The notes beneath the pieces were generated by a model, which did not search any database, was not told the DNA's origin, and saw only the letters and a program-made list of their open reading frames with translations. The position numbers and the translations under genes are program-made. DNA of 64,000 bases from an uncultured Mycoplasmatota bacterium (GTDB lineage: Bacteria; Bacillota_I; Bacilli_A; RF39; UBA660), in NCBI GenBank assembly GCA_900549325.1, contig UROI01000002.1, forward strand, positions 81-64,080, read 5' to 3'. Shown here piece after piece: positions 12,630-40,643 of the stretch (position 1 is the stretch's first letter; each line of letters opens with the position of its first letter).

Positions 12630-12799
12630 TGTATTTATTACCTTTCTTTATTAGTTATCTCCTTGTTAATATTATTTTATAACAAAATGGGTAAAAAGTA
12701 CATATTTATTTACTAAATTTTACTAAAATATATAGGTTTTATGGGAATTTATCTGTTTATTTTATTATTATTTTCCATATTTTTAATTTTATTATTATT

Positions 12800-12842
12800 T
12801 TTTAATAAATTTAGAGAAAGTAGATTACTCTTCTACTTTCTC
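12800..12842 (-). terminator. Hairpin overlapping the ssb stop codon (probable terminator)
   Basis: Perfect 11-bp stem GAGAAAGTAGA / TCTACTTTCTC spans the TAA. The trailing U-tract is weak. Confidence 0.5.
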
Positions 12843-13214
12843 TTCTTGATCTTCAGATAATTCTTCGACCACTGTATCACTTTTTCTACGTTGGGGGTTG
12901 GATGTTAGAAATGTGACTTTTTCGGCGATTATCTCGGTTTTCTTTCTTTTCGTTCCTTCGGGTGTTTCTACTACTCTGGTCTGAAGACGACCTTTGATGC
13001 CAATCATATCACCAGTTTCACAATATTCACTAGTGGATTCTGCTACTGCAGACCATAGAGTGCAATCTAAGAAATCTGTATCGTATTCACCATTGGAATT
13101 TTTATAATTTCTTGGGACTGCTAGTGTTAGAGTGGCCATCTTTTTACCATTTTCTGTAACTTTTGTTTCAGGGGCTCTTGCTATTCTACCTACTAGAACT
13201 ATTTGATTAACCAT
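12825..13214 (-). CDS. ssb: Single-stranded DNA-binding protein, non-canonical C-terminus
   Basis: OB-fold N-terminus MVNQIVLVGRIARAPE...LWSAVAE...IGIKGRLQTR. Start set to MVNQ behind an AAGGAGG RBS. Tail ends EEKVEE rather than D-D-D-(I/L)-P-F. Confidence 0.85.
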   Translation of the reverse strand: MVNQIVLVGRIARAPETKVTENGKKMATLTLAVPRNYKNSNGEYDTDFLDCTLWSAVAESTSEYCETGDMIGIKGRLQTRVVETPEGTKRKKTEIIAEKVTFLTSNPQRRKSDTVVEELSEDQEEKVEE

Positions 13215-13405
13215 AGTTTTCCTCCTTTCCAGAGCCAATATATCACACTATATTTTTGGCGGCAAATGAGTAAAAATGGTTTTCGGTGGTTAAAAATGTA
13301 AAGAAAAAGAACCTTTAGATTTCTAAAAGTCCTTGCTTTATTTTTTTAGTACCTTTAAAAGATGTTTTTGGGTAAAATTACTACTTTACACAAATTTGAC
13401 ACTTT

Positions 13406-17356: not shown

Positions 17357-19534
17357 TTAATCATCTGAGAAAAAGTCATCAAAGAAATCGTCATCACTTG
17401 TATTATCTGTATACATATTTTGTAGTTTTTCTTCTGCTGTATTATCTTCTTTAGGTACTGATGCTTTTTCTTCACTTTGTGTCAAATCATTAAATGATAT
17501 ACTTTCTTTATCAGCTAGTGGTTTAGCTGGCTCCGAAATTACATCTACTGGTTTTTGCTCTTTTTCTTGTTCCTTAGCTTGTTCTTCTTCTCTTTCAATT
17601 TCCGCTATTTTAGCATCGATCTTCTTAACTAAATCGTCTATGTTGAAACTATCTTCTTCAGGTTCTTGTCTTCCTTGATTACCTAAGAAGCTAGGCATAC
17701 CGCTACTAAATGGATTTGAAGATGGACTAGCAAACGGATTTGAACCACCAAATGGGTTACTCATAAATGGATTTGATGAAGATGCAAATGGATTAGACAT
17801 ATTAGGATTAAATTCTCCCATTGCAGCCATCTTTTCTTGCTTCTTTGCTTTAACAAATTCTCTTATATCAAATAATTGTAACTCTCTCTTTGGTCTTGCT
17901 TCTGGAGTACTTTTTGGATATGTTCTACCCCAATCAACTTGGAAGTCTGTTTGAAATTTTGTTTTATATGGAAACATTCTTCTTCTTAAAACAATTATTT
18001 CAAACTGATTTAGTCTTTGTAAATCACTTACTGTTACTAAAGGTGTTGAAGCAGTTTTATCTTTTTCTTTTGATTTTACTTCACCACACATTTTACTTAT
18101 TTCTTCAAGAGCTGCTATTTCGCTACTTATCAAATATAGTAAATTACAGTTACCACGAATAGTATCACCATTCTCTTTACCATACACTTGGGTTAACTGT
18201 GCGAAGTTTTGAATAATAAAGGTAAATCTAATTAATCTACTTCTAGCAGCAGTAACCATTGTTGTAACATCTTTTAAAGGTGGCATATTGGCAAACTCAT
18301 CTAGAATAAAGTTAGTTCTATATGGTAACTTTCCACCACTTTCTTGAGCAACATCTATCAATGTTTCATAACACTGTTTAATGAATATTGTAGCAAGAGG
18401 ATGCAATGTTTTCTTCTCATCTTGAACTATTAAGAAAACAGCTGTTTTCTTTCTACCAATATCACGCATATCAAAATCGCTATAAGATAGCATTTCTGAT
18501 AAATTTTCTCTTGATGAGAATAATTTTATTTTTTGTTTAAATGTTGCTATAATACCCTGTTTTGTTTCATCCGCAGTGAAAACAGTACCCGAGGCATTAA
18601 TGTATGCAGGTTTAGATGGATCTTTGGCATTAAAGTACTCTTTTATATAGTTATTGTTTGGACCGCCAAATCTTTCTTCACCTAAGCTACTCATTAAGTT
18701 TATACTATTTAAATTTACTTGAGCTGGTGATGCATCTTCAAATAATCCTAATGCAAGACCTGTAAAATAGTCCGCTGCTGTTTTTTCCCAGAATGGATCG
18801 CCGCTACTTTTTTCTTCATATAATATATTTAATGCTAAGTCATCAAGTAACTCTATGGCCTTATCTGTATTGCCATCTTTATATAATTGGTAAGGTAGAC
18901 TCATGGGATTCCATGCATTTCCATGTTGTGGATCCCTAAAATTTAATGTAACTATATTATAGCCTTCATCTTTTAGTAATGATGCTGTCTCTTCATATAA
19001 CTCGCCTTTAGGGTCTGTTAATATCATTGATTCATTGTGCTTAGCTAATAATTTTATCATTGGTTTAGCTACTATTACGGTTTTACCTGAACCAGTAGCA
19101 CCCATAACTAACCAGTGGTCTTCACCATTATCAACCCACATTTTACCTTTTTTACTATATAAGGCTATACCAGCTGCGGGTATTGTCTGATCTTTAATGT
19201 TTACTACTTCAAGACCTTTTTTAAATTCAGCATCAGTTGCCCATCTTGAATAACCTTTTTCTTTCTTTGAACCTATACTAAAACCAAAGCCCTTTTCACG
19301 ATCAAAAATATATGATTTAACCGCTAGAAAAAGTCCTACTAGAGATGCTATAAATAAGAATAATGTCATACCTATGTATCTAGAAGTAAAGGCTTTAAAT
19401 GGTAAAAATCCATAAAACTTATTAGTTGAAGCTAAACTACTTACATTTAGCACTCCTATTGCACATAAATATAATAGAAATACGCAAAAAATTATAAATA
19501 TAATTAAATCTTTCTTTTCTACTTTTATCTTCAT
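17357..19534 (-). CDS. Type IV coupling protein (VirD4/TraG family ATPase)
   Basis: Two N-terminal TM helices, Walker A GATGSGKT, TDPKGELYEE, ILDEFAN Walker B-like motif. C-terminal NPF-repeat and acidic/aromatic tail. Confidence 0.9.
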   Translation of the reverse strand: MKIKVEKKDLIIFIIFCVFLLYLCAIGVLNVSSLASTNKFYGFLPFKAFTSRYIGMTLFLFIASLVGLFLAVKSYIFDREKGFGFSIGSKKEKGYSRWATDAEFKKGLEVVNIKDQTIPAAGIALYSKKGKMWVDNGEDHWLVMGATGSGKTVIVAKPMIKLLAKHNESMILTDPKGELYEETASLLKDEGYNIVTLNFRDPQHGNAWNPMSLPYQLYKDGNTDKAIELLDDLALNILYEEKSSGDPFWEKTAADYFTGLALGLFEDASPAQVNLNSINLMSSLGEERFGGPNNNYIKEYFNAKDPSKPAYINASGTVFTADETKQGIIATFKQKIKLFSSRENLSEMLSYSDFDMRDIGRKKTAVFLIVQDEKKTLHPLATIFIKQCYETLIDVAQESGGKLPYRTNFILDEFANMPPLKDVTTMVTAARSRLIRFTFIIQNFAQLTQVYGKENGDTIRGNCNLLYLISSEIAALEEISKMCGEVKSKEKDKTASTPLVTVSDLQRLNQFEIIVLRRRMFPYKTKFQTDFQVDWGRTYPKSTPEARPKRELQLFDIREFVKAKKQEKMAAMGEFNPNMSNPFASSSNPFMSNPFGGSNPFASPSSNPFSSGMPSFLGNQGRQEPEEDSFNIDDLVKKIDAKIAEIEREEEQAKEQEKEQKPVDVISEPAKPLADKESISFNDLTQSEEKASVPKEDNTAEEKLQNMYTDNTSDDDFFDDFFSDD

Positions 19535-19602
19535 ATAAAAATCTTTCCTTCCAATTAACTACCAATATTATAGCATTAATAATTTGAATTGTAAATAAGT
19601 TT

Positions 19603-19649
19603 AATATAAAAGAAAAGGCATTCCTTAAAAGATGGTCCTGCCTTTCTTT
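19603..19649 (-). terminator. Terminator separating the T4SS core operon from the coupling-protein gene
   Basis: Minus strand: AAAGAAAGGCA-18 nt loop-TGCCTTTTCTTT followed by TATATT. Confidence 0.55.
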
Positions 19650-19662
19650 GAGTATTTATTTT

Positions 19663-20523
19663 TTAACTTTTTAAATATATATCTACTTTATAATTCATAA
19701 TAGATTCTTCACTAAATACAAACTTGTTACCATTTTTATCAATAACTGAATATACTCTATTATTCTTTATTTTTTCCATTAAACATTTATCTGCTGAAGT
19801 TGATATTTGGTTGATATTACTATTCATATATTGCTTATAAGAATCAATGGTATCAAATTCAGCCTGTTTCTTCATACTATCACTAAGTAATGAATATGAC
19901 GAAGTTATATTAGTTCTTACTTTTTCTATATAATCAGATAAGTATAAAGAACATATCTCCTCTTTGGTAACTATACTAGGACTATTTACTTTATTATAAT
20001 CATTACTATTGATACTTATTTTTTTTATTTTATTAATTATTTTTGTATAATCTGTTTTATTGTCAATTGGATAAAATGATACAGTTAAATTGTTTAAATC
20101 CTTTAATATTATTATTTGAAAACTATCATCAATTTCTTTAGTACTATCATAATTATTCTGAATAATACTTCCTTTTAAGTAATAAATATAATTATTCCTA
20201 ACATTTACTGAAGTTATTGTATTTGCCTTTGCTGATGTATTTATTGGATATGTTATTATTTTATCTAATACATTGTCTATGGTTATTTCATTACTTGATA
20301 TATAATCTTCATCTAGTAAAGAATAGATAGCTTCTTTATTATTACTACTAGCATAGTTAACGTATTTATTTACACTGCTAACTATTGAAAAATAATCATT
20401 ATATTCACTTACCGCTGCTAGTTTATCACTATTACTTTTTATATTTAATATTAAAACAATTGCTAGTGGTATTACGCAAACAAGTATTACTACAATTAGT
20501 GTTTTTATATCATCTTTTTTCAT
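19663..20523 (-). CDS. Membrane-anchored T4SS accessory protein, possible VirB8/TcpC-like
   Basis: Single N-terminal TM then about 250 extracytoplasmic residues. Position between hydrolase and T4CP matches the VirB8-like slot of Gram-positive T4SS. No motif-level proof. Start set to MKKDD behind AAGGTGA. Confidence 0.4.
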   Translation of the reverse strand: MKKDDIKTLIVVILVCVIPLAIVLILNIKSNSDKLAAVSEYNDYFSIVSSVNKYVNYASSNNKEAIYSLLDEDYISSNEITIDNVLDKIITYPINTSAKANTITSVNVRNNYIYYLKGSIIQNNYDSTKEIDDSFQIIILKDLNNLTVSFYPIDNKTDYTKIINKIKKISINSNDYNKVNSPSIVTKEEICSLYLSDYIEKVRTNITSSYSLLSDSMKKQAEFDTIDSYKQYMNSNINQISTSADKCLMEKIKNNRVYSVIDKNGNKFVFSEESIMNYKVDIYLKS

Positions 20524-20535
20524 ATGTATCACCTT

Positions 20536-21714
20536 TTATTTACAACCATTTTTTACATAGTTAACGAATTCACTGCTACTTTCTCCTCTTTTAGTACAAG
20601 TATTTTTTGTATCATTAGGTCTTTCAAAATTATAGCAAAAATCATATGTTAGATCTTTACTTGATGATGTTCCTTCGGAAACTCCTTTATAAAGTGTTGG
20701 ATAGTTATTTTCTAGTTCATATAACAAGAAACCTACTTGTCCACCTATTGTATCGTAGTTATTAGGAAAAGTTGTCTTCAGATTATTCCATCTTTCATTA
20801 TGCCATTGACATAATCCATAACTGGTTGGTACACCATTTTCATAATCACCATATGCGTTATAATCAAATGAACTTTCATGATTGATATTAGTCATTAATG
20901 CAATTATTCCATTTTCTGATATTCCATTTGCTCTTAATGTTAAGCAAACACTTTGCTTATTAGAATCACCATCAACAGAACCACCATATTTGCCCTTTGG
21001 TCTAGGATTAGTTGCAGATATATAGTTGCTTGGATCAACATAACTACCATTGACCATAACTCCAAAATGTAGATGTGCACCTGTCGAAGAACCACTATTT
21101 CCTATTTTTCCAATAACTTGACCTTGTTTTACTTTATCTCCTGATCGAACTGTAATACTATTCTTAGCCATATGGGCATACACTGTATAAGTACCATCAG
21201 CATGAAGAATTTTAACGAAGTTTCCAAAGCCACCGCCATCAGTATTTCCGTAATAACCATTGTCGTTATATTGTACATCACTATCGGATGTTGGATATAC
21301 AATTTCTCCTTCTTCAGCAGCAATTACATTTACTGTCCCTACTCCACCTGCTCCTGGAGATATATCTAGACCATTATGATTGCTTGTTCTAAAGCCATCA
21401 TCGCCACCAAACTCTGATGTAATGGTGATACTTACAGGTTCACCATCAGCATATGTTACACCATTTTCAGTTCTTGTCTCTGAACTTCCTACTGGCCACC
21501 AATATGTATTTTTTTCTTTTATCTTAGAATAATCATTATATGCATATGAATTTCCTGAACTACCACCAATTTCTAGATTATCTATCCAAAGTGGTGATGT
21601 TAATATTACAATAAATATTACTGGAAAAAAAGCAATTAATGTTGCTATACCAATTATAACTACCTTTTGTTTAATACTTAAACCTTTCCATTTTTTTAAT
21701 AAAACTTTCCACAT
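20536..21714 (-). CDS. Bifunctional cell-wall hydrolase (M23 peptidase + phage-tail-lysozyme-like domain), VirB1 analogue
   Basis: N-terminal TM. M23 motifs HNGLDISPG and GSSTGAHLHFGVMVNGSYVDP. C-terminal YGLCQWHNERW lysozyme-like domain. Confidence 0.8.
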   Translation of the reverse strand: MWKVLLKKWKGLSIKQKVVIIGIATLIAFFPVIFIVILTSPLWIDNLEIGGSSGNSYAYNDYSKIKEKNTYWWPVGSSETRTENGVTYADGEPVSITITSEFGGDDGFRTSNHNGLDISPGAGGVGTVNVIAAEEGEIVYPTSDSDVQYNDNGYYGNTDGGGFGNFVKILHADGTYTVYAHMAKNSITVRSGDKVKQGQVIGKIGNSGSSTGAHLHFGVMVNGSYVDPSNYISATNPRPKGKYGGSVDGDSNKQSVCLTLRANGISENGIIALMTNINHESSFDYNAYGDYENGVPTSYGLCQWHNERWNNLKTTFPNNYDTIGGQVGFLLYELENNYPTLYKGVSEGTSSSKDLTYDFCYNFERPNDTKNTCTKRGESSSEFVNYVKNGCK

Positions 21715-21739
21715 TAATATCACCACCTAATGGAGAGTA

Positions 21740-23524
21740 TTATAATCCTCCACCTGAGCCAAATGACTCTAATTCATCTTCTGTTACTATTGCGTTTATT
21801 TGCATTCTTCTATTACCACATACAAATAATGCTTCACCTTGGCTAAATCTCTTTATACCTTCTTTTTCATTTTCATTTAAATCTATTAACATTGATAAGT
21901 CTTCAACTGATTGTTTCTTTAATCCCATAACTAAATAATATGAAGAGTTATCAAATATTGCCTTACCATGCATTAATATTCCATCTGCTACAAAGTCTGA
22001 TGGTTGCTGAGTAATTATTATTGTTCCTGTATTGTATTTTCTTGCTCTTCTTTGAACTTGGGCTAAGAATTCTGCTCCTAGTTCATTTTTAGCTCCTAAT
22101 AATACGTGTGCTTCATCTACTGATAGTACTGTATTTTTATTTGGGTCTAAGCATAGTCCCCAAGCAAACTTAAGTACATTAAATAATAGTGCATTTCTTA
22201 TGTTAACATCTGAATTCATTAATTCTTTTATATTGAATACTAGAAAATCACTATCAGTATTTATTGAAGTATGACCATTAAAGTAATATTGTAATTCTCT
22301 TACAAATGGTCTTAATTTTAATTCTAGTCTTTCCATAACATCTCTTTCATGAGTTTTCTCAGTCATTGATGTTAATTTACTTGTTACTGTTACATATACA
22401 TCACTAAATGTTGGAAATTGATTTGAAGTAAATTTAGTAAAATCTGAAGTAAAGGTTATGCCGAATCTAGCATATGTATCTTGCACTACCTCACTAAATA
22501 GTGTTAATACATCATCTTCAATATCTGGAGCATAATACTTCATGAATGCTTTTAATGATTGTAAAGTTTTATTAAGTACAGTGTAACCTAATCCTGACCT
22601 TATTTCATTTTCATCAGCATCCATTATTATTTCAAGTGGATTTACCATTCCGTATTCTCCACCCTTACCTAAGTCTACTACATCGCCACCATACATTTTT
22701 GTCATTTCACTTATTTCGCCTTCAGGGTCTACTGCTACTATTTGATAGCCATTTCTTATATGACTACGAAGTATTAATTTAGCTGCTGTTGATTTACCTG
22801 ATCCTGAAGTACCTAATATAATCATGTTGGCATTATTTCTATTGCTTTCTTTTCTTATTTGATATAAGAACTGATTAAATAGTACAACACCACCAGAGAA
22901 ATCCACTCCAAGAAGTGTTGATAATCCATCATCTTTGATGCTATCAAAGATGAATGGATACATTGCTGCCATTGTTGGAGATGGCATTGGCGTACCAATT
23001 CTACTTTCTATTATTTGTTTGTCAAATATAGGAAGGATAGATTTCAATACTCTTTCTTGTTCAAATCTAAGAGGTATAGCTCTCATTTCCATAGCATCAA
23101 GATAATTCTTAATACTAACTTTCTTATTTTCTAATTCTTCTCTAGTATCAGCAGTAATCATTATATGCATTTGAAAATCAAATGTTTTTGCTTGTGAAGC
23201 AGTAAACTGCTGAATAAAATATTCTAATGAATCAACGTCTTGTCTTATTCTTTCCTGTATTGTTCTATCTTTTTCTTGCTGGTATTTACTTTTTAGATCT
23301 GATATTTCTTTATTTAGCATTTTGGCTAGTACTGAAAATGGTAATGGAATGTGCTTAATAACCATTTTTACACCAGACATATTTGTTAAATTGGATAAAT
23401 ATCCTGGGCCAATTAATCTAGGATATGATATTACTGTTAATATAGTAGCATATCTATCACTGATAACAAAATCAGCAGGATTAAATTGTAATCCTTTCGG
23501 AGCTAGTTCACTTTTAAAATTCAT
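21740..23524 (-). CDS. VirB4-family T4SS ATPase, C-terminal two thirds (ATPase domain)
   Basis: Walker A GTSGSGKST, Walker B SVDEAHVL, IIITQQPSDF. Begins where ConE/Orf16-type VirB4 proteins are about 190 residues in. Confidence 0.9.
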   Translation of the reverse strand: MNFKSELAPKGLQFNPADFVISDRYATILTVISYPRLIGPGYLSNLTNMSGVKMVIKHIPLPFSVLAKMLNKEISDLKSKYQQEKDRTIQERIRQDVDSLEYFIQQFTASQAKTFDFQMHIMITADTREELENKKVSIKNYLDAMEMRAIPLRFEQERVLKSILPIFDKQIIESRIGTPMPSPTMAAMYPFIFDSIKDDGLSTLLGVDFSGGVVLFNQFLYQIRKESNRNNANMIILGTSGSGKSTAAKLILRSHIRNGYQIVAVDPEGEISEMTKMYGGDVVDLGKGGEYGMVNPLEIIMDADENEIRSGLGYTVLNKTLQSLKAFMKYYAPDIEDDVLTLFSEVVQDTYARFGITFTSDFTKFTSNQFPTFSDVYVTVTSKLTSMTEKTHERDVMERLELKLRPFVRELQYYFNGHTSINTDSDFLVFNIKELMNSDVNIRNALLFNVLKFAWGLCLDPNKNTVLSVDEAHVLLGAKNELGAEFLAQVQRRARKYNTGTIIITQQPSDFVADGILMHGKAIFDNSSYYLVMGLKKQSVEDLSMLIDLNENEKEGIKRFSQGEALFVCGNRRMQINAIVTEDELESFGSGGGL

Positions 23525-24081
23525 TATGAAATCACCGTCCCAAAATTAGTTGTCATTCCACTATTAAGGAAATTATCAAGTATTATTCTTAAATCATCAT
23601 TAGATACTTGTTTAGACTCTAAACCTGCATTAGCAAGTCCAGTAATTAGAGTTCTAAGTCTTTTTTGTATCAAATCGTCATTCTTTTCTTTAAATAATAT
23701 ATAGTACTCAGTATCAGTAATATTATTATTCATAAAATCATTGGCCTTATCTATATCTTGATTGATTAACTTTCTAACTGCTGGATTCGGAGTTTGATTA
23801 TATAATAACTGTAATCTAGCAAGATAGTTATTTAGATCTACTGGTCTATCTGCTGATATTAACCAAAATTCAAAATCTATTGTATTATAGAAATTCTTTA
23901 AAGCAATTATAGTATTATCTTGTGTACCTTGATCCAAGATAAAGATATTTCTTGGCTTTATTTTTACCCCTGTTACTTTTAGTTTGTTATCAAGTATTAT
24001 TGCTCCATTAGCAATACTTTTAATTGGTAACCAATCTTCAGTATACTTTGAACTATTTTTTGTCGTCGCCGAATTTTTCAT
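23524..24081 (-). CDS. VirB4 N-terminal domain encoded as a separate ORF
   Basis: DWLPIKSIANGAIILDNKLKVTGVKIKPRNIFIL resembles the N-terminal block of Gram-positive VirB4 (Tn916 Orf16 / ConE type). Its stop overlaps the next ATG (TAATG). Start set to MKNSATT. Confidence 0.6.
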   Translation of the reverse strand: MKNSATTKNSSKYTEDWLPIKSIANGAIILDNKLKVTGVKIKPRNIFILDQGTQDNTIIALKNFYNTIDFEFWLISADRPVDLNNYLARLQLLYNQTPNPAVRKLINQDIDKANDFMNNNITDTEYYILFKEKNDDLIQKRLRTLITGLANAGLESKQVSNDDLRIILDNFLNSGMTTNFGTVIS

Positions 24082-24373
24082 AGAAACACCAACCTCTCCA
24101 TATATAATTTCTTCTTTCTGTAAAAAATCTAAATACACTTTGTATAGCACATAAAACATTATGATAATTTGGTATTGGCACTACCAGTAGGCCAGTTACT
24201 CCTACTGGTAGACATGATATCAATATCATTACAGTATCACTTGAATCAACAAATACTAATAATAATAAAGTTACCACCATTCCTGTACCAAACATAATTA
24301 AATCAAATGGTCTAAATATATTAAATATCAATGTACCTCTTTTAGCATTAGCCGGTACTAAATATCCATTCAC
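24053..24373 (-). CDS. PrgI/VirB3-like small membrane protein
   Basis: 106 aa with GTG start behind AAAGGAG. Two TM helices, sits directly upstream of VirB4 as in Gram-positive T4SS. Confidence 0.55.
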   Translation of the reverse strand: MNGYLVPANAKRGTLIFNIFRPFDLIMFGTGMVVTLLLLVFVDSSDTVMILISCLPVGVTGLLVVPIPNYHNVLCAIQSVFRFFTERRNYIWRGWCFYEKFGDDKK

Positions 24374-24394
24374 TATGTATCACACTCCTTTTTA

Positions 24395-26440
24395 TCAATA
24401 ATAATTCGAACCATCAAACTCGTCATTATCATTACTATTATTTTTATTTTGACTATTATCATTATAATAATTTGGGTTTACATACGGATTATCATCATCG
24501 CTATCTCCTCTAGATGTTGTATCTGCGGTAAATTGACTGTGTCCCGTTTCGTATGGGTTCCCATCATCACTACCATTTGTTACATTACTGCTTCTTCTGG
24601 ATGTTGCATCTGTGGCAAATTGACTATGTCCTGTTTCATATGGATTGCCATCATCACTGCCATTTGTTATATTTTCAAATGTGGAATTTCTAATGTTGGG
24701 GGTTGAGTTTTGTAGATTTTGTCCCACACTATTTTCTCCATTACCCTGATTGTTGCTACCACTAGGTTTAGCACCTGCCGGATGTAGCGATTTGTACATG
24801 CTGATTTGATCTTCTCTTCTCGCATCAGCACCATATCTCTTTCTCATGTTGTCGTGAGTTTTTTGAGCGTCACTAAGAGCCTTAGCAGCAGCATTCTTTC
24901 TTTCGACTGCTCTTTTTATTTCATCAGAATCCCCACTTGCTCTAGCAATTTCGTATGCCTCATCTGCTGCCTTATTCTCATCTTTAGCCTTTTTCAATTC
25001 AAGATAACTATTCTTGAACTCTTCGTTTTTAAATGCACTTGCAATGTTATCACTACCATATTTATCATATAAGTGTTTTCCTGGCTTTTCTAGTTCTTTA
25101 ATTTCTGCGGCGTTCTTTCTATCTTCTTTCCATCTATCATAATTAGTTTTTAATTTCCCACCAGTCTTGTTCCATATTGCATTTCCCGCGGCTTTACCAG
25201 TATGACTCCATGCAAAATTTCCTGCTTTTTTACCTAGATTACCTGCATAGCCTAATACTTTGTTGGCTGCTCCACCTAATAGCGGTACATCAGCAAATGT
25301 TTTCTTTAATCCTTTAACGCCAAAGCCAAGGGTTGCTGCTCCACCGCCCATATTTGGAAATAAATCCTTTAATAGATCTGGAACCCTTTTACCAAACATT
25401 AATAATCCTATAATTAAAAATATTTTTACCCATATATATGTTCCATCACTTTGACTAATTCCTGTACTATCGAATAGTGCTACATCATCATTCATAATAG
25501 TTAGCACTAAGTTTGATAAGGTAACAATAAAATATATTATTGCAAGTCTCACAAATAAATCTAGATATGTTGTAGTGCATTGTTTTATCCAATTTTTGAA
25601 TGCACCCTCCGGATCTGATATGTATGATAGTATAGGAATTGGTGCAATCAATTGTAGATAAGCTAACTGAAATACACGCACTGATACACTAATACAATAA
25701 GTAATTAATATCCATATTACCGCCAAAGCTACAATTGGAGAAAACAAAAAGTCCCATGATATTACATAATGTCCATTTTTTCTTAATGTTAAATAGTATG
25801 TCATGCTGTTGAAGTCTTTAATACTTCCGTCTTTTAAACTTTGCTTTATAGTCTCATAATTTCTTTTATATAGAAATACATCCATATCACTTCCATCTAA
25901 ATCTTTATACTCATATCCACCATCTAATTCACCAGGATTGGTTTCCCTAAAAAAGCAAAAATACAAATCTACTGCTAGCGTTCTTCCAAAATTTTCAACA
26001 TTAATACTTTCATCATCCGGAGAAATCATTCTATATATTATGTTATTTCCTTCTGTTCCAACAATTGTATTTTGTAATTTAAATGCAAGTTTAAATAAAC
26101 TAGGAGTTATTCCAAGCAATACAATTGACATTACACATCTCATTATTATATTTCCAAAGCCATTTTTTTTATCGGTCAATTTTTCAGGATCCACTAGAGA
26201 TTGTATCAATGAAAATGACAATTTAAATATCATAAAAAGTCCAAGAATCATTCCAACTCTAGTATATATTTTTTGAATATAAGTTGAATTTAATATTTGC
26301 GCTCTAGCTAAAATCATAAATAAATTATATATGCTGATTATAAAACTATATAGTTGTGCTGATATCCATCCAAAAAATGTCCTTATTGCTTGTTCAATAA
26401 TAAGTCCAATGTTATCAAATATTCCCAATTGATAAATCAT
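24395..26440 (-). CDS. VirB6/TrbL-like polytopic channel protein with long repeat-bearing C-terminal tail
   Basis: 681 aa with about 7 TM helices in the first 400 aa. Then a charged coiled region and an N/D/G/S-rich tail with a duplicated 29-aa unit. Confidence 0.7.
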   Translation of the reverse strand: MIYQLGIFDNIGLIIEQAIRTFFGWISAQLYSFIISIYNLFMILARAQILNSTYIQKIYTRVGMILGLFMIFKLSFSLIQSLVDPEKLTDKKNGFGNIIMRCVMSIVLLGITPSLFKLAFKLQNTIVGTEGNNIIYRMISPDDESINVENFGRTLAVDLYFCFFRETNPGELDGGYEYKDLDGSDMDVFLYKRNYETIKQSLKDGSIKDFNSMTYYLTLRKNGHYVISWDFLFSPIVALAVIWILITYCISVSVRVFQLAYLQLIAPIPILSYISDPEGAFKNWIKQCTTTYLDLFVRLAIIYFIVTLSNLVLTIMNDDVALFDSTGISQSDGTYIWVKIFLIIGLLMFGKRVPDLLKDLFPNMGGGAATLGFGVKGLKKTFADVPLLGGAANKVLGYAGNLGKKAGNFAWSHTGKAAGNAIWNKTGGKLKTNYDRWKEDRKNAAEIKELEKPGKHLYDKYGSDNIASAFKNEEFKNSYLELKKAKDENKAADEAYEIARASGDSDEIKRAVERKNAAAKALSDAQKTHDNMRKRYGADARREDQISMYKSLHPAGAKPSGSNNQGNGENSVGQNLQNSTPNIRNSTFENITNGSDDGNPYETGHSQFATDATSRRSSNVTNGSDDGNPYETGHSQFTADTTSRGDSDDDNPYVNPNYYNDNSQNKNNSNDNDEFDGSNYY
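24509..24673 (-). repeat. In-frame tandem duplication (~87 nt unit) in the VirB6-like tail
   Basis: Encodes N(I/V)TNGSDDGNPYETGHSQF(AT/TA)D(A/T)TSR twice. Confidence 0.85.
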
Positions 26441-26452
26441 ACTAATAACCTC

Positions 26453-34759: not shown

Positions 34760-36094
34760 TTAACTTATATTTTGATCACTATTTATACTTGCTACATTTA
34801 TACTTGTTGGTGCACTAGGTGCTGAAGCATAAATATTTGGTATATTATTAGGAGGAGTTACCACATTACTAGTATTCATGGTACTTACCATATTATTATT
34901 TGGCGTACTTGTTACTGGATTATTGATAGCTGGAGTATTATAAATTGTATTTTGTACTCCAGTATATAGACTATGGTCTACTACGAACTCTCCTACCTTA
35001 TCTTTATTTATTATATCATTATTTTCGCTACTAGTAAACTCTTCTTTTACTAAAATATCTGGAGGCATTATTACCCCTTGACTTTCTAGATATGAAAGTA
35101 AGTATTTGGATGGATTAGCAGTTGTTTCTTTTCCATCTGGAGTCTTTTTATATAGTATTTTATATTCTGCCTTATTATCGTCTGTAACATAGAATTCTAC
35201 TACCTCTGATACTTCTCTATGAAAGGCATTATATTTAGTACTATAATATCCTTTTATGTGTACTCCTAATTGTACATATCTATGAATTGTTTTTAAAAAC
35301 TGATCTATATCTTGGTTTGTTTCTAGTAGGCTATACATTCTACTTGGAATTGATTCTGCTTTATCAGCATGAATTGTTGATAAAATATTATGTCCAGAAG
35401 ATATTGAGTTTCTAACAGCCATTACTGCTTCAGCACTTCTTACTTCGGATAGTAATATCCATCTTGGGTTCTGTCTCATGCAAGTAACTAATACATCTGA
35501 ATATGATGCTATATTATTTGTTTTCATGGCTACAATATCTCTATGTGGAAATATTTTATCTAAGTGTAACTCTAATGTATCTTCGATTGTTATTATCTTT
35601 TCATTTTCTTTGGTATGGGCTGCTAGATATTTTATGAACTCTGTTTTACCACTACCAGTTTCACCACTTACCATAATGTTACAATGTCCTTCAACGCATT
35701 TAAGTAGAAAATCATGAATATTTAGTCTTATGTAATCTTCTGCGATTATTTTATCTTTTTGTAATCTTATTTTAGCAGGTGTCTTTCTTATTAATACTGC
35801 TATACCATTTCTAGCTATGGAATCATGTACAAAGTTCATTCTTAACTCTGCTGATTCGGCATCAAGAAAGGGATTAGCCATATTAAACGACTTGCCCATT
35901 GAATTAGCACACTGAAAGGCTATTTTTTCCATTAGAGCATTATCTATTCCAGTATTTTCTACTCTATATACGCCTTTAGATAATGACTTTAGCCATACTT
36001 GACCACCATTATCGTAAGATATATCGGTTATATCGTCATTATCAAGAAATTGTTTTAATGGACCAAAATCTATTTGATTAAATTGATTGTCCAT
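34760..36094 (-). CDS. CpaF/TadA-type secretion ATPase (VirB11 superfamily)
   Basis: Walker A SGETGSGKTEF, ITIEDTLEL, LLSEVRSAEA, His box STIHA. About 90-aa N/T/P/S-rich C-terminal extension. Confidence 0.85.
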   Translation of the reverse strand: MDNQFNQIDFGPLKQFLDNDDITDISYDNGGQVWLKSLSKGVYRVENTGIDNALMEKIAFQCANSMGKSFNMANPFLDAESAELRMNFVHDSIARNGIAVLIRKTPAKIRLQKDKIIAEDYIRLNIHDFLLKCVEGHCNIMVSGETGSGKTEFIKYLAAHTKENEKIITIEDTLELHLDKIFPHRDIVAMKTNNIASYSDVLVTCMRQNPRWILLSEVRSAEAVMAVRNSISSGHNILSTIHADKAESIPSRMYSLLETNQDIDQFLKTIHRYVQLGVHIKGYYSTKYNAFHREVSEVVEFYVTDDNKAEYKILYKKTPDGKETTANPSKYLLSYLESQGVIMPPDILVKEEFTSSENNDIINKDKVGEFVVDHSLYTGVQNTIYNTPAINNPVTSTPNNNMVSTMNTSNVVTPPNNIPNIYASAPSAPTSINVASINSDQNIS

Positions 36095-36108
36095 GTTACA
36101 CCTCCTTA

Positions 36109-36945
36109 TTAGTTATTGTTTGTATTAGTTGTATCTTCAGTTACATTATCACTTACTTGTGGTAAATCGTCTACTGATACAAATGCTGTTTTAGAATTTA
36201 TGAATTCTTCTATTTGAAGACTGCTTACTGTTACTTTTTGGTCTTCAGATAATGTTGCAGTATTTGGTATTAATAATAATTCTACATCATAGTCTGTTAG
36301 ATATAATGCTTTTCTTAATAATAGGTGTGTTTCTTCTGGTACTGCAAATAGCATATATGCAGGAGTTCTAGCTTCATCACTATTTTCAAATACATGTCTA
36401 CCTGATGAATCTTTAACATCTAGTACTTCAATATTACTGATGAATTTACCAAACATTACTTCTCCATCGTCATTTAATGATTTGTAATAGATATTGATAT
36501 GACTACCTGGAGCCATTGAGTTAGCGTATGTAGTTGCTATTGTTACTGGATAGTTTATTACAGTATATCCTTCTGGTACTCCTGAAAAAGCTGAATCCGG
36601 TAAGTCTTTTTCGTCTACCACTAAATCTGTATAGAATAAACTTCCTTTAGCTATCATAGTATTATAATTAGAATATTTTCCTACGATACTTTTGGCTGTG
36701 GTATAGTACTTACTAGTATTAAGTAGTTCTATAGGAACATTTCTAATCTCTATCATATCGTCTGTTATGTATGTTCTTGGTTGTATTGTTTGTTTAGCAA
36801 CAGGTACTGCTACTAATTCTGTTTTAGAATTTATTCTATAATTATAACCAATATATAATATTACTAAACATAATATTACCCCTAGTATGGTAACGGTATT
36901 TTTGTTACCAAAAAATTTTTTCATTGATGCTTTTAAATTATTCAT
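36109..36945 (-). CDS. CpaB/RcpC-like Flp pilus assembly protein (SAF domain)
   Basis: N-terminal TM then VPVAKQTIQPRTYITDDMIEIRNVP...IVGKYSNYNTMIAKGSLFYTDLV, typical of CpaB. Confidence 0.7.
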   Translation of the reverse strand: MNNLKASMKKFFGNKNTVTILGVILCLVILYIGYNYRINSKTELVAVPVAKQTIQPRTYITDDMIEIRNVPIELLNTSKYYTTAKSIVGKYSNYNTMIAKGSLFYTDLVVDEKDLPDSAFSGVPEGYTVINYPVTIATTYANSMAPGSHINIYYKSLNDDGEVMFGKFISNIEVLDVKDSSGRHVFENSDEARTPAYMLFAVPEETHLLLRKALYLTDYDVELLLIPNTATLSEDQKVTVSSLQIEEFINSKTAFVSVDDLPQVSDNVTEDTTNTNNN

Positions 36946-36976
36946 ATTATTTTCCTCCTTTATTTAAATAATTTTT

Positions 36977-37867
36977 TTATTTTGCATACTCATATTCATT
37001 ATAATTCCATGTTATTTCTAATTTTAACACTGTTGTTCCTGGACTTCCTGTTCCTGTCCATTCTATCCAATATTTTGATTCTTCACATTCTTCAGTAGTT
37101 AAACATATTCTTCCTTTTATGCTAGTTACTGTAATATTTTTTTGGATGTTATTTATATTCGTAATATTATTACTAGCATCAAAGTTAGTTTGTTCATTGC
37201 TACTTCTAGTCCAATCTATATCTCTATTTAATAGAGCATATAACAGTTCTCCTTCTTCTGTTACATTTCCTTTGTTTGAAGCCTTGGATATTTTAACATC
37301 ATAAACGTTGCTATGATTTAGTTCATCGGGTAAATTGATTGGCTCTTTTACTGAATAGTTACCAGAACTACTATAAGGTACTGAGTAATAAATCTTGGTA
37401 AAGGCTTTATTTACTAAAGGTGTTCCATTTACATAACTTTCACCACTTTTAGATCCATCTTTACCATAATATTCTAATATTGCACTTAAAGTATTAGCAA
37501 CATGATAATCGGATGTATCTTGATAAATCGTGTACTCTCCTATTCCAGTATTTATTGACACTGTTACCTTAGGTGGTTCTTCCATAATATCAAAATAATT
37601 TATTGTATAATTGCTACCTGCAAATACTGTTGATTCTGCAAATCTTCTAGTAAAGCTTTCTACAAATTTATCTTTAATTATTTTTAATTCTCCAGTTTCT
37701 CTATAATAATCCATATTGATGGCATCAATCATTGAGGCTTCAGTTACTTCCTTAAGTAGGTAATAATCATTTTCGTTATTTGTAGTTATATTTTGAAATA
37801 ATATTATGATGGTTAAGCCAACTAATCCAAATACTATTAATCCAACACTAGTAAATGACCATTTCAT
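36977..37867 (-). CDS. Membrane-anchored extracytoplasmic protein, 296 aa, unknown function
   Basis: N-terminal hydrophobic helix MKWSFTSVGLIVFGLVGLTIIILF. ATGA overlap with the upstream gene. Confidence 0.6.
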   Translation of the reverse strand: MKWSFTSVGLIVFGLVGLTIIILFQNITTNNENDYYLLKEVTEASMIDAINMDYYRETGELKIIKDKFVESFTRRFAESTVFAGSNYTINYFDIMEEPPKVTVSINTGIGEYTIYQDTSDYHVANTLSAILEYYGKDGSKSGESYVNGTPLVNKAFTKIYYSVPYSSSGNYSVKEPINLPDELNHSNVYDVKISKASNKGNVTEEGELLYALLNRDIDWTRSSNEQTNFDASNNITNINNIQKNITVTSIKGRICLTTEECEESKYWIEWTGTGSPGTTVLKLEITWNYNEYEYAK

Positions 37868-39957
37868 GAATTACCACCTTCTTTGATATAATTTCTAAAG
37901 AAATCTTTATCTACTTCATTAAAGTAACTATGATTTTTATTATATTCTTTTATCTCACTTATTGTTTTATTATCTAGTTCAGTATAGTATTCTAGCTTTT
38001 TATATGAGTCTTCAAGTGTCTTTTTATCTTTATTTCCTTCAGTTATATACCAGGTATACCAATTAACTCCTGGGAATCTACTAGGAAATGGATTATTTAA
38101 ATTTATTGGTCTATATGTAAATTTATATCTTACTTTACCATTTTCTTTTTCACCACTTGATGGTTCATATATTCTGTTAGTTACTTTTAATAAACAGCTT
38201 GTATCAATAGTCCAAGTGCCAAACCATACTTTATTTTTGTTTGTTGAATCTTTTTTTGCCTGCGTCTCAGATAATCTACTTAAGTTTTCTAATGTTACGT
38301 TTATGTTATACTTTTGTATATCTAATGGTATATAATATTTATTATTAATATTAGCATTATCATTAGATTCTGAATAACTCACTTTACCAGTTAGTTCTTT
38401 TAGATATGATTCTGGTAAAAAGAATGTACATGTTGTTATTAATTTATTGGCAGTAGTAAATGATCCTGACTGAGTACATTTTTTAACAAGTCTTGAACTA
38501 TCTAATCCAGTTATTGTTAATGTTATATTTTCTTCAAAGTCTGATAATGATTTTAATTTGTTTTGCATTGCTTCATCAATATCTTTTCTTTGAGCAGTAG
38601 TTAGTACTTTGTTAGTCGCATAATTCCAGCTAACTTCATTATAATAGGTGATTCCATATTTTAACCAACCGCCATTATAACTATTGGCATTATAATTTTT
38701 ATCTTCGTTTACCAAATTGGATTTAAATACATTTGATATATATCCTTTTTGTTCTATCTTCACTACTGCACTAGTTCCATTGTTTCTTACTGTTAGTTCA
38801 TTACAAGTTGAAGACAAATTAGTCCAACTATTGCAACTCATTTTCTTGTTAGAGGCTGGCTCAGATACAGCACATTTTTTATCATTCTTTACATTAATTT
38901 TAAATGATGTGTTACCTGTAGGTATTACCCAAGAAGACCATGCAGCTTTTGGAGAGCTAGAACCTGGTGGGCAAATTTCTCTGATACCATCACTACCACT
39001 TATGCCAGCAGTTCCTATCAAGAATCTTCCTGGACCATATGTGTTATTTGGAAAACTGTTTTTTTGTGCTTCTAAATAACCATTTTGAAATCCAATACTA
39101 TTGCTTTTTGATACTATGTTATAAGTGGAGTCCGCTGCTCCTATACAGTCTTTTATTTCTTTACCATTTTCTGTTTCTAGATTTTCGTTGCTTATCCAAG
39201 CAGTTGTTGCTATAAACTTTACTGTATTTGAAAAACTTGTTTTATCTATTTGGATATAATCGTTTCCGCTATTGCCTTTAAGTAAACCTTCTCTTATAAA
39301 TAATGATTCATATGCAGAGGTGCTGTTTCCAGTCTTTTTTTGATAATCTTTATTGGTAGCGGCTATTTCAAAATAGACATCACTCTCTTCAGGGACATTA
39401 AGCCATTCTCCTTGACGAACGTTAAAGCTTATATCAAATCCTAAATCCTCATAGTAACAGTTACTACCATCTTTATTAGTATTACATTTGTTATCCCAAA
39501 CTAATCCTACCGGAAATGTATATGTTGTTTCATTATATAATGTTTTAGCTTCATCTTTACTATTTAAATTGTAATACATTTGCTGATAAAAATTATATTT
39601 TTTCCCATTTACACTTTTTTGGCCTTCAATCTCTTTTGTCTCTATTATGGTCTTTCTACCATTTTTCAAATAATAAGCTCTAATAAATATTCTTTGACCA
39701 CCATTTGTAGATGTACTATTATCTGAAAATGTTACATTAAGTATTTCATCAGTTTCATTACCATTACTATCCATTTTATTAACTGTTACAAAGTTGTGAG
39801 TTTGATGTAAGAAAGCCCATCCTTTAAAATTAATTGTACCATCTGGGGTTATTTTAAGATCGGTTACATCATATCTTAATTCTCCTACTACTGCATTTAC
39901 TTTTCCTATCATTAATACGAACAATATGATAGCTACAAAGATGTATCTTTTTCTCAT
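37864..39957 (-). CDS. Large secreted Cys-containing protein, 697 aa (candidate adhesin or pilus-associated)
   Basis: Signal peptide MRKRYIFVAIILFVLMIGKVNA. No TM. Many Cys and N/T/S-rich beta-like sequence. Translationally coupled on both sides. Confidence 0.6.
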   Translation of the reverse strand: MRKRYIFVAIILFVLMIGKVNAVVGELRYDVTDLKITPDGTINFKGWAFLHQTHNFVTVNKMDSNGNETDEILNVTFSDNSTSTNGGQRIFIRAYYLKNGRKTIIETKEIEGQKSVNGKKYNFYQQMYYNLNSKDEAKTLYNETTYTFPVGLVWDNKCNTNKDGSNCYYEDLGFDISFNVRQGEWLNVPEESDVYFEIAATNKDYQKKTGNSTSAYESLFIREGLLKGNSGNDYIQIDKTSFSNTVKFIATTAWISNENLETENGKEIKDCIGAADSTYNIVSKSNSIGFQNGYLEAQKNSFPNNTYGPGRFLIGTAGISGSDGIREICPPGSSSPKAAWSSWVIPTGNTSFKINVKNDKKCAVSEPASNKKMSCNSWTNLSSTCNELTVRNNGTSAVVKIEQKGYISNVFKSNLVNEDKNYNANSYNGGWLKYGITYYNEVSWNYATNKVLTTAQRKDIDEAMQNKLKSLSDFEENITLTITGLDSSRLVKKCTQSGSFTTANKLITTCTFFLPESYLKELTGKVSYSESNDNANINNKYYIPLDIQKYNINVTLENLSRLSETQAKKDSTNKNKVWFGTWTIDTSCLLKVTNRIYEPSSGEKENGKVRYKFTYRPINLNNPFPSRFPGVNWYTWYITEGNKDKKTLEDSYKKLEYYTELDNKTISEIKEYNKNHSYFNEVDKDFFRNYIKEGGNS

Positions 39958-40643
39958 TCTAATACACCTCTTTTCTTTCTCTTATTAACAATAATTATAA
40001 TTATCAATATTATTAATACTACTGCTAAAACGGATACTATATACAGTTGATATTTAGTTATAAGTGATATAGCTTTGTCTAATATTTCTGTAAAATAATT
40101 ACCTTTTTTTGTATTATTATCTTCTGGCTTTATATCTTTTGTTTTTTTATATTCTTCTAGTTTTTTTACAAATGTTTCATAACTTGGCTGATATTCTAAG
40201 TATTTTGAACATAACGGAAATTCGTCGGTATTTATTCCTTCACACAATGGATCTAAAGAATATGAATTAAACTTTGGTAATTTAACACTTATATCACCTA
40301 TCTTTTCCTGGCAACTATTTGAATATATTGAAAATCTATATTTACCAGTAGCAATTTTATTTATAATTATTTTATTATCTTTTACTTCTTTCCACTCTTC
40401 ATTATAATCGTCTATTCTAATATACATATCAGTACTGATATTACTAAATGTTAAATCAAACATATAGTCTACAATTACACCATCATCATTGGCATTGCTT
40501 CCTAAATGTTTATATGTGACTTTTACTTTGCTTGCTTCCTCTTTTAATGTGTCAAGTTCTTCTTTTGTACAAGATGCTGATACTGGTAAAGTACTTAATA
40601 AAAGCATTAAAAATGTAAATATTATATAACTTATTTTTTTCAT
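39954..40643 (-). CDS. Secreted protein with C-terminal membrane anchor, 229 aa
   Basis: Signal peptide ending VSA, four Cys, C-terminal TM followed by KRKKRG. First gene of the operon. Confidence 0.6.
   Translation of the reverse strand: MKKISYIIFTFLMLLLSTLPVSASCTKEELDTLKEEASKVKVTYKHLGSNANDDGVIVDYMFDLTFSNISTDMYIRIDDYNEEWKEVKDNKIIINKIATGKYRFSIYSNSCQEKIGDISVKLPKFNSYSLDPLCEGINTDEFPLCSKYLEYQPSYETFVKKLEEYKKTKDIKPEDNNTKKGNYFTEILDKAISLITKYQLYIVSVLAVVLIILIIIIIVNKRKKRGVLE

Follow-up and report, generated by a model that had tools for sequence, protein, structure and literature searches.

What does a type IV secretion system (T4SS) do when it sits in a chromosome, joined to a Tad-like pilus module and with no relaxase beside it? 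The question is raised by a stretch of 64,000 nucleotides from an uncultured Mycoplasmatota bacterium (contig UROI01000002.1, positions 81 to 64,080), here called the window, to which all coordinates refer unless another locus is named. A block on its minus strand, running from its first gene at 40643 down to 17357, contains 23 substantial open reading frames (ORFs) by translation, every one on that strand and mostly overlapping or separated by very short gaps. A first-pass annotation had described a co-directional block between housekeeping genes at this place, and it is confirmed here. The block is, in our view, probably an anciently domesticated apparatus of the pLS20/pXO2 type, chromosomally fixed, vertically inherited and without a relaxase nearby, which would export a cargo to neighbouring cells on contact. 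The host lineage consists of small-genome, spore-forming gut Bacilli. Genes for the relaxase, for oriT processing and for plasmid maintenance are gone from the neighbourhood, and the locus is under strong purifying selection.

The T4SS genes occupy the downstream part of the block:

17357-19534, minus strand: VirD4-type coupling protein (T4CP) of the CD1115 family (Pfam, NCBIfam)
19663-20532, minus strand: p289, a bitopic membrane protein in the VirB8 position (position and topology)
20536-21726, minus strand: cell-wall hydrolase with M23 peptidase and lysozyme domains, a VirB1 analogue (Pfam)
21740-23524, minus strand: VirB4 ATPase domain protein, 594 amino acids (aa) (P-loop_TraG, AAA_10, NCBIfam)
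23524-24159, minus strand: VirB4 N-terminal domain as a separate gene, start probably at 24081
24053-24373, minus strand: p106, a protein with two transmembrane (TM) segments in the VirB3/PrgI position (position and topology)
24395-26440, minus strand: extended VirB6-like channel protein (TrbL_4, hhalign)
26453-28291, minus strand: p612, exported, with a C-terminal VirB2-like two-TM domain (PF18895, E 0.0099, residues 527-593)
29403-29738, minus strand: VirB2-like small pilin, copy 2, 111 aa (Pfam T4SS_pilin, E 7.7e-4)
29862-30260, minus strand: VirB2-like small pilin, copy 1, 132 aa (translation, family alignment)

Most of these names are well supported. The T4CP matches T4SS-DNA_transf in Pfam (4e-52) and passes the NCBIfam cutoff for conju_CD1115 (NF045973, 286.8 bits against 250), with two N-terminal TM segments and intact Walker A and B motifs, and the hydrolase matches Peptidase_M23 (1.2e-23) and Phage_lysozyme2 (2.3e-21) in Pfam. 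The VirB4 ATPase has an intact Walker A motif (GTSGSGKS) and scores 356 bits over positions 294-893 of NCBIfam VirB4_plasma; the separate N-terminal ORF matches positions 92-277 of the same model (E 3.7e-16), and its orthologues carry the TraC-like PF26593. This two-gene VirB4, with an N-domain of ~185-215 aa and an ATPase of 594 aa, is found in every related locus containing the region (L009-L092; related loci are numbered with an L), and the split is therefore not damage. Two gene wrecks had been suspected in the middle of the block, and only the HExxH pseudogene at 28362-29129 is one. The VirB6-like protein reaches 27.1 bits against the TrbL_4 cutoff of 27, with TM families of Mycoplasma integrative conjugative elements (ICEs) below cutoff. 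Both small pilins, which form a tandem duplicate (repeat D1, 81% nucleotide identity), and the C-terminus of p612, which groups with them in family clustering, are two-helix VirB2-like modules; PF18895 is weak in the window copies and matches 22 of 72 orthologues (best 8.4e-7). The Gram-positive T4SS proposed in the first-pass annotation thus stands for the T4CP, hydrolase, VirB4, VirB6 and VirB2-like pilins, and 'VirB3-like' and 'VirB8-like' are names given by position and topology. For p106, a member of a conserved family present in 67 loci (f4), there was no HMM support and hhalign against DUF5592 gave 2%; for p289, hhalign against pLS20 VirB8 (gene 53) gave 21%, covering the TM segment only, and a single-sequence AF2 model (pLDDT 36) is unusable for fold comparison. 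In other species the M23/lysozyme hydrolase is swapped for proteins with a GLDCSGF or GFDCSGF motif, which by that motif alone may be read as NlpC/P60-type hydrolases. At its C-terminus (17357-17900) the T4CP carries a low-complexity tail of ~190 aa that includes SNPF repeats and finishes in a highly acidic DDDFFDDFFSDD stretch; this tail could be a substrate- or partner-docking region.

Upstream of these genes lies the Tad-like module:

31345-32340, minus strand: TadZ-like protein, receiver-like N-domain plus ParA/MinD-like domain (AF2, Foldseek)
32340-32792, minus strand: p150, 150 aa, with an N-terminal hydrophobic segment and leader MREAFG/G, 'TadE-like' by position
32821-33006, minus strand: pilin-like peptide of 60/61 aa (MKEATG/EVSMTVIV...), start likely the ATG at 33003
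33062-33853, minus strand: TadC-like platform protein, T2SSF-like (profile-profile links)
33853-34758, minus strand: TadB-like platform protein, T2SSF-like (profile-profile links)
34760-36094, minus strand: secretion ATPase of the CpaF/TadA/VirB11 family (Pfam T2SSE 7e-27; Walker A GETGSGKT intact)
36109-36945, minus strand: CpaB/RcpC-like (SAF) protein (orthologue Pfam matches)
36977-37867, minus strand: DUF5411 protein with an N-terminal TM segment (Pfam PF17424, 1.1e-50)
37864-39957, minus strand: p697, a large exported protein for which no family was found (translation)
39954-40643, minus strand: p229, first gene of the block, exported, carrying a signal peptide and anchored by a C-terminal TM segment (no Pfam match)

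The closest solved relative of the ATPase in the PDB is CpaF (75.4 bits, against 60.5 for VirB11 and ~60 for FlaI); its NCBIfam scores (VirB11 114 bits, TadA-type 105 bits) are both under cutoff, so that the subfamily assignment is soft. The window's own CpaB-like protein matches only TIGR03177 in NCBIfam (E 7e-4), and its orthologues match Pfam RcpC (PF16976) in 8 of 11 cases (best 5.8e-9) and SAF in 6 of 11. TadB and TadC were reached through Bacillus badius: a TadB profile enlarged with remote homologues aligns to the T2SSF protein bbF2 (hhalign 96.2%) and TadC to bbF1 (86.7%), bbF2 being above the Pfam T2SSF cutoff and bbF1 scoring 24.6 bits against a cutoff of 25.2. The enlarged TadB profile also links the two to each other as paralogues (87.2%); the narrow TadB profile showed no such link. 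By way of these intermediates, TadB and TadC appear to be a T2SSF-type platform pair. The TadZ-like protein has a degenerate Walker A motif and no sequence-level match (Pfam, NCBIfam, PDB profile). Its AF2 model, built from 49 homologues (pLDDT 87.4), shows an α/β N-domain followed by a P-loop domain, and Foldseek aligns it to the ParA structure 3cwq (6e-5), and also to HypB, BcsQ and MinD. Over both domains it also aligns to 3FKQ, which we take, in agreement with reference 47 of PMC6668835, to be the Eubacterium rectale TadZ structure, at E 6.4e-4 with TM-scores of 0.3, the domain orientation being different. Pfam and NCBIfam returned no match for the window's TadB, TadC, TadZ, TadE-like protein and 60-aa pilin, nor for p229, p697, p289, p106, p162 and p174, and orthologue alignments of TadB, TadC and TadZ matched no PDB sequence.

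Is the pairing of a coupling protein with a Tad-type fibre what makes this locus unusual? It had been taken as foreign to classical Gram-positive conjugative elements, and this does not hold, as pLS20, pXO2, Paraclostridium and B. badius plasmids share the order. In the published gene table of pLS20-family conjugation operons (Val-Calvo et al., 2021, PMC8557374), the Tie adhesin is followed by genes 36 (126 aa, TM), 37 ('VirB11'), 38 (268 aa, TM), 39 (243 aa, TM) and the small TM genes 40 and 41, then further on by 48 (T4CP, CD1115), 49 (extended VirB6), 50 (103 aa, two TM), 51 (192 aa), 52 (VirB4), 53 (VirB8), 54 (VirB1) and, later, 58 (MobP2 relaxase). The layout recurs in plasmids of the pXO2/pAW63 type, in one of Paraclostridium and in B. 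badius pPM400; in B. badius, genes for T2SSF and the ATPase stand interspersed among those for the T4CP and VirB6. When plasmids were searched with the window's ATPase (tblastn), 610 records were found at E<1e-25 with 30-36% identity, nearly all of them conjugative and from Bacillus, Listeria and Enterococcus; to the 'VirB11' of pLS20-family, Enterococcus, Listeria and Paraclostridium plasmids its identity is 33-36%. Profile comparison with hhalign links TadB to the gene 38 family (97.4%, E 1.2e-11), TadC to the gene 39 family (92%, E 6.5e-7), the N-terminal ~108 aa of the DUF5411 protein to the gene 36 family (70.6%, E 3.8e-5) and VirB6 to the pLS20_p028 family (gene 49; 97.4%, E 1.4e-11), and these links are cognate-specific. 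The pLS20 T4CP used as a query detects the T4CP in 65 sources, and both sides belong to the same NCBIfam family. Homology therefore reaches the profile level for genes 36, 38, 39 and 49 and the sequence level for genes 37, 48 and 52; hhalign gave no signal between p211 (the VirB4 N-domain) and gene 51 or between the 60-aa pilin and the B. badius pilin, and 16-44% between p150 and gene 40. VirB2-type proteins occur on this side too, as proteins of pXO2 (L094, 23516-23794) and pPM400 (L097, 1195-1428 and 6956-9804) pass the TrbC/VirB2 or T4SS_pilin cutoffs. Because the order is shared and the profile homology is cognate, the two halves of the block were inherited as a single unit, and their junction is not novel.

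The locus stands out by its lost DNA-processing genes and by its fixation across a lineage. The plasmids carry a MobP2 relaxase, relaxosome auxiliaries, a primase-like protein, replication and partition genes, Tie and surface exclusion, which were not found here, whereas the window has the CpaB/RcpC-like and TadZ-like proteins, the tandem VirB2-like pilin array and the pilin-fused 612-aa protein. The T4CP closes the window's block and precedes VirB6 in the plasmids. Identity is only 22-35%, and the window's locus lies in the chromosome and is present throughout the lineage. Of the operon-head genes, p697 holds the position of Tie with no homology to it (tblastn) and is 31-37% identical in L006 and L009, and orthologues of p229, at the Tad operon head in L001-L009, are 37-47% identical where the ATPase is 76-87% identical. 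The closest plasmid VirB4, 29% identical, lies on a plasmid of Mycoplasmatota bacterium zrk4 (CP074574.1, L098). There, at 11109-33056, VirB4 is joined to a SAF protein, an AAA ATPase, CpaF, T2SSF and TadE-like proteins and a 1650-aa protein, and two pilins carry a Flp-like motif (KGSPSLEY).

How far, then, is the locus fixed? In a species-level scan with VirB4 as the query (one genome per species), 563 stretches matched and the best 80 loci were taken; across these 80, VirB4 is 72-99% identical. The best 120 VirB4 database clusters are 81-93% identical, and 113 of the 120 are exactly 594 aa long. The metagenome-assembled genomes (MAGs) that carry the locus are labelled uncultured Bacilli, Tenericutes or Mycoplasmatota, Firmicutes CAG:321 or Ca. 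Onthousia, come from human, goat, rabbit and chicken guts, and include a closed MAG of 1.52 Mb with the joined locus (L059). The order kept is CpaB, ATPase, TadB, TadC, pilin, TadE-like protein, TadZ, small pilin(s), a large pilin-domain protein, VirB6, p106, VirB4-N, VirB4, hydrolase, bitopic protein(s) and T4CP, often followed by the rhodanese gene. The Tad genes stand upstream in 39 of the 55 loci with enough upstream DNA and the T4CP downstream in 55 of the 66 with enough downstream DNA. The synteny check proposed in the first-pass annotation thus shows the whole block conserved, with the same housekeeping flanks recurring across species and with presence in all same-species contigs, and not the strain-variable presence of an ICE. 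Ratios of non-synonymous to synonymous substitution (dN/dS) are 0.02-0.05 for VirB4, 0.04-0.10 for the T4CP, 0.11 for the ATPase and 0.04-0.09 for TadB, and across species VirB4 is as conserved as SufB. The locus was also found in MAGs labelled Oribacterium, Methanobacteriaceae or Muribaculaceae (L031, L036, L042, L062, L078, L083). It is of Bacilli type there, and these labels most likely reflect binning contamination rather than transfer, because the VirB4 in question is 73-82% identical to that of the window.

The absence of DNA-processing genes was borne out. Pfam searches of the block's own ORFs and of 45 larger flanking ORFs gave no relaxase, recombinase or integrase and no replication protein, and the window ORFs scanned include no transposase of any kind. 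By tblastn, neither the MobP2 relaxases of pLS20 and pXO2 nor a TOPRIM protein nor an integrase matched in the window and 92 related loci (1.75 Mb; MobP2 class, ~±10 kb per genome), and none of the gene families across the related loci is relaxase-like. The window has no tRNA gene, no att-like direct repeats bracket the block (the check gave only AT-rich chance matches), no plasmid or phage DNA matches the whole block by megablast, and GC content is ~28% window-wide with no compositional break across the block.

Chromosomal T4SSs without a relaxase have been described elsewhere. Those of Patescibacteria (CPR) derive from monoderm conjugation, are widely conserved and mostly lack a relaxase (Quinonero-Coronel et al., 2025, PMC12102498), and their essentiality goes back to Wang et al., 2023, as cited in a review (PMC12857230). 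They appear to be the closest published analogue: chromosomal in a small-genome lineage, with tandem divergent VirB2-like (PF18895) pilins near VirB6, VirB3, VirB4 and T4CP, and working alongside a type IV pilus (T4P) system. They differ in belonging to another phylum, the host here being Bacilli with sporulation genes, and PMC12102498 does not place T4P genes in the cluster, whereas here a Tad-like module is joined to it. The resemblance is functional and architectural; membership of the Patescibacteria VirB4 clade is unlikely because the host is one of the Bacilli. A further comparison is with the ICEs of Mycoplasma (CDS5/16/17): the top NCBIfam matches of VirB4 (VirB4_plasma) and VirB6 (MMCAP2_0566, Mbov_0396) are Mycoplasma ICE families, and a classical relaxase is not known for these elements or for Mycoplasma chromosomal transfer (MCT) either. 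However, the VirB4 score of 356 bits is set against a cutoff of 590 (Mbov_0397 family), no transposase or integrase was found in the window, and the wall hydrolase and Tad-like module are absent from the wall-less mycoplasmas. In concept, the IncI R64 thin pilus with its T4SS, PAPI-1, and Ups with Ced are also alike, in that a DNA translocator with VirB4 makes contact with the aid of a type IV filament; these are unrelated lineages with filament genes in separate operons and canonical pilins, and Ced imports DNA. A literature search on the T4SSs of RF39/RFN20 and on DUF5411 found no description of the present system.

How might the domesticated apparatus work? By analogy with its homologues, the Tad-like module would polymerise the 60-aa pilin, perhaps with the 150-aa protein as a minor pilin, into a short fibre or piston across the thick wall, through an opening made by the M23/lysozyme enzyme. 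VirB4, VirB6 and VirB3 together with the VirB2-like pilins would form the conduit, and the T4CP would bring in a substrate from the cytoplasm, to be exported into an adjoining cell upon contact. The T4CP has been retained, which favours export over uptake; the relaxase has been lost, which favours a cargo other than a self-transmissible element. Protein effectors, or another load of benefit to the host, would in our view be somewhat more likely as cargo than self-transfer of DNA.

The surface that such a machine engages would be set by a hypervariable cassette comprising the VirB6 ectodomain, p612, the pilins, and the HExxH and partner genes. On both flanks of 24.4-31.34 kb, DNA identity to sister contigs of the same species is 96-98%; the 6.9 kb between them align in patches only (69-81% in L001, up to 86% in L013). 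The borders are sharp, lying at the 3' end of VirB6 (24395/24655) and at the TadZ stop codon (31344), and they enclose VirB6, p612, the small pilins and accessory genes. In L001 and L013, which belong to the same species, tblastn finds p612 27-28% and VirB6 40-45% identical (L010 gives a partial 34% match), the non-synonymous divergence of VirB6 from L013 is 0.44, and the small pilins in the cassette comparison are 39-87% identical. Two features of the cassette are accessory:

28362-29129, minus strand: pseudogene, fragments p60b and p162 of an HExxH protein; sister strain L002 has it whole (331 aa)
30687-31211, minus strand: p174, a strain-specific accessory gene at a variable junction (no Pfam match)

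The intact 331-aa gene lies at L002:14964-15959. At the site of p174, sister strains L001 and L002 hold another gene, and p174 resembles the proteins of ~175-195 aa that accompany HExxH proteins in other species. Such junction genes (~330-360 aa, with partners of ~175-195 aa) occur also at L013:2035-3057 and L025:2220-4356, in varying number. Pfam gave no match for the variable HExxH proteins and their ~175-aa partners, and we regard them as candidate cargo/partner pairs. Directly after the intact HExxH gene of L002, where the window has p612, stands an IS66-family transposase (L002:16062-17774). In the window's VirB6, the C-terminal tail contains an 87-bp tandem duplication (24506-24673, 85% identity), which encodes a repeated NGSDDGNPYETGHSQF segment inside a long low-complexity stretch.

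Several observations weigh against export by a domesticated machine as we propose it. Every step of the mechanism is drawn from homologues. Eleven of the 66 loci have no T4CP nearby (L024, L026, L027, L028, L030, L032-L035, L037 and L039, in which the locus stops after the hydrolase and bitopic genes and housekeeping genes follow), and these eleven species have relocated the T4CP gene or lost it. Other parts of these genomes could hold a relaxase gene. The Tad genes stand alone in L006-L008, the T4SS lacks an adjacent Tad module in L043-L049 and a few others, and a terminator-like hairpin (31307-31325, minus strand, consensus scan) directly follows the 3' end of the TadZ-like gene. The filament itself is the softest part. 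The window's TadB and TadC have no direct match in Pfam, NCBIfam or PDB, T2SSF is matched by only 1 of 19 remote TadB homologues, and the link to T2SSF runs through intermediates, one of them just under its cutoff. The 60-aa pilin lacks the Flp motif G/XXXXEY (no E5-Y6) and any HMM match, and no A24 prepilin peptidase (TadV/CpaA) was seen among the window ORFs scanned, although the rest of the genome could encode one.

Set against the Tad/Flp pilus of the TFF superfamily (Denise et al., 2019, PMC6668835), the module shares a CpaF-like ATPase, a paired TadB/TadC platform, a TadZ-like and a CpaB/RcpC-like protein, and short pilins with a larger pilin-like protein. It differs in the pilin motif, in the peptidase, in its place within a T4SS cluster, and in platform, TadZ and TadE-like proteins without direct HMM matches. 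The Tad module of the first-pass annotation was therefore recovered in part, namely for the CpaF-like ATPase, CpaB, TadB, TadC and TadZ (by HMM, orthologue, profile and fold), with p150 being TadE-like in position only and matching nothing in Pfam across 18 orthologues. The 60-aa pilin belongs to a conserved family (f16/f49) at the same position in related loci, and it shares with p150 a leader M-[KR]-[DE]-A-x-G followed by a hydrophobic helix. This leader looks like a class III signal distinct from the Flp motif, and the resemblance makes it possible that p150 is a minor pilin. 'Tad-like' is a fair label for an assembly module of this kind; the pilin motif and the peptidase keep it out of the Flp/Tad family in the strict sense.

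Could the apparatus instead still move DNA? Exchange of chromosomal DNA between conspecifics, with a relaxase encoded elsewhere or with no need for one and with the cassette as a mating-type or self-recognition determinant, is a serious rival, even if we consider it rather unlikely. The T4CP is of a conjugative family, VirB4 and VirB6 score highest against Mycoplasma ICE families, and T4P-assisted DNA exchange has published precedents in R64, Ups/Ced and MCT. Flanks of 96-98% identity around a replaced cassette with sharp borders also imply frequent homologous recombination between strains, but any route of horizontal gene transfer can yield such mosaics. MobP2, TOPRIM and integrase queries detected no homologue of a relaxase, primase or integrase in the window or the 92 related loci, and the nearby SSB, a protein that binds single-stranded DNA, lies 4 kb off with housekeeping genes in between.

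Perhaps a Tad-type pilus operon for adhesion and an independent T4SS operon are mere neighbours, without functional coupling. The Tad-like operon alone in L006-L008, the 16 of 55 loci in which no Tad genes precede the T4SS, the hairpin after TadZ and the promoter-like sites that the pilin genes have of their own would all suit this reading. Yet pXO2 and plasmids of the pLS20 family, Paraclostridium, B. badius and Mycoplasmatota show the two side by side as well, inside what is described as a single conjugation operon, with the T2SSF and ATPase genes of B. badius interleaved among T4CP and VirB6. The operon-head genes, p229 among them, have shifted behind the T4CP in L041 and L053 and are still inside the cluster, and even the Tad-alone loci end with a VirB2-like small pilin gene. 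Independence of the two halves is accordingly improbable.

Uptake of DNA, with the Tad-like pilus capturing it and the T4SS importing it in the manner of ComB or Ced, is very improbable in our judgement. To our knowledge, the ComB and Ced importers work without a VirD4-type T4CP, whereas the T4CP is among the best-conserved genes here, and no ComEC, ComEA or DprA was seen in scans of the window. The idea draws on published precedents, Ced/ComB and the tad genes of Micrococcus luteus (reported to capture DNA, PMC8467076), and on a small-genome lineage with a nearby SSB that lacks the usual C-terminal tip. An inactive remnant of a decayed ICE, the null hypothesis of the first-pass annotation, is hardly credible: one accessory gene is a pseudogene, the IS66 transposase interrupts the locus in L002 and no relaxase or integrase was found, but three ATPases have intact motifs at dN/dS of 0.02-0.11, VirB4 is conserved like SufB with synteny in dozens of species, and there are no att repeats, no GC shift, no close plasmid or phage DNA match and no plasmid VirB4 reaching 30% identity. 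The domesticated machine that had been offered beside it fits far better, with the locus in at least 80 species-level genomes, its gene order kept, its genes constrained and no MobP2 or integrase match.

On the reading of a domesticated export apparatus, what is known and what is new can be separated. The pLS20-type T4SS, domesticated T4SSs and Tad-like modules are known kinds; lineage-wide chromosomal fixation in gut Bacilli, the joined CpaB and TadZ genes, and the swappable cassette are new. Until now, descriptions of a relaxase-less chromosomal T4SS with VirB2-like pilins have treated it as peculiar to Patescibacteria, and the same repurposing would have taken place here in widespread gut Bacilli. 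A 2025 review holds VirB2 to be otherwise absent from Gram-positive T4SSs, with which the VirB2-family pilins of pXO2 and pPM400 are at odds. With clear signs of function and a swappable surface cassette, the locus offers a handle on how uncultured organisms meet their neighbours. We further suggest, tentatively, that this large clade may have turned a pLS20-like apparatus, with the Tad-like filament module and VirB2-like pili retained, into a core cell-interaction organelle, the Gram-positive counterpart of the T4SS/T4P pair that is essential in episymbiotic Patescibacteria, in which the cassette sets partner or prey specificity and the machine delivers effectors or extracts resources. If true, this would be the second such system after that of Patescibacteria, in organisms abundant in the human gut.

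The comparison also bears on the plasmids. PMC8557374 gives genes 38 and 39 of pLS20 (L095, 11049-12586) as 'unknown', but at the profile level they are homologous to T2SSF platform proteins. Standing beside a CpaF-like ATPase, and taken together with the VirB2-family pilins of pXO2 and pPM400, they suggest that some Gram-positive conjugation systems may build filaments, against the textbook view, and the plasmid link is a route to what the 'VirB11' module does in Gram-positive conjugation.

The flanks of the block consist of housekeeping or sporulation genes on both sides:

Left flank: rhodanese, YunB, SufB, an Amidase_3 protein, SSB, an XRE-type helix-turn-helix (HTH) protein, a class II aminoacyl-tRNA synthetase, PFOR
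Right flank: thioredoxin-like protein, SpoU methylase, QueH, Mur ligase, FtsY, RNase Y, GAPDH, Gpr, RecD2, others

The SSB ends in …EDQEEKVEE, without the usual D-D-D-I-P-F tip, and adjoins the XRE-type HTH gene; the pair (12264-13238) lies 4 kb downstream of the T4CP and is kept in related species. Both were considered as parts of the system and rejected, the HTH protein as a regulator of the locus because in other settings it accompanies the AsnRS gene and its XRE matches are generic, the SSB because four housekeeping genes stand between.

Some smaller features concern the small pilins and their genes. All 72 small VirB2-like pilins have two invariant cysteines, close to either terminus (C7 and C104 in the 111-aa copy), which suggests a disulfide between the ends. 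Promoter-like sites (TTGACA-17-TAATAT) lie upstream of both genes, at 30288-30336 and 29765-29793, together with AGGAGG ribosome-binding sites. A perfect 16-bp palindrome (AATAAGTAATTGTCAA/TTGACAATTACTTATT) at 30301-30336 overlaps the first of these sites; found only in the same-species loci L001, L002 and L013, it looks like an operator.

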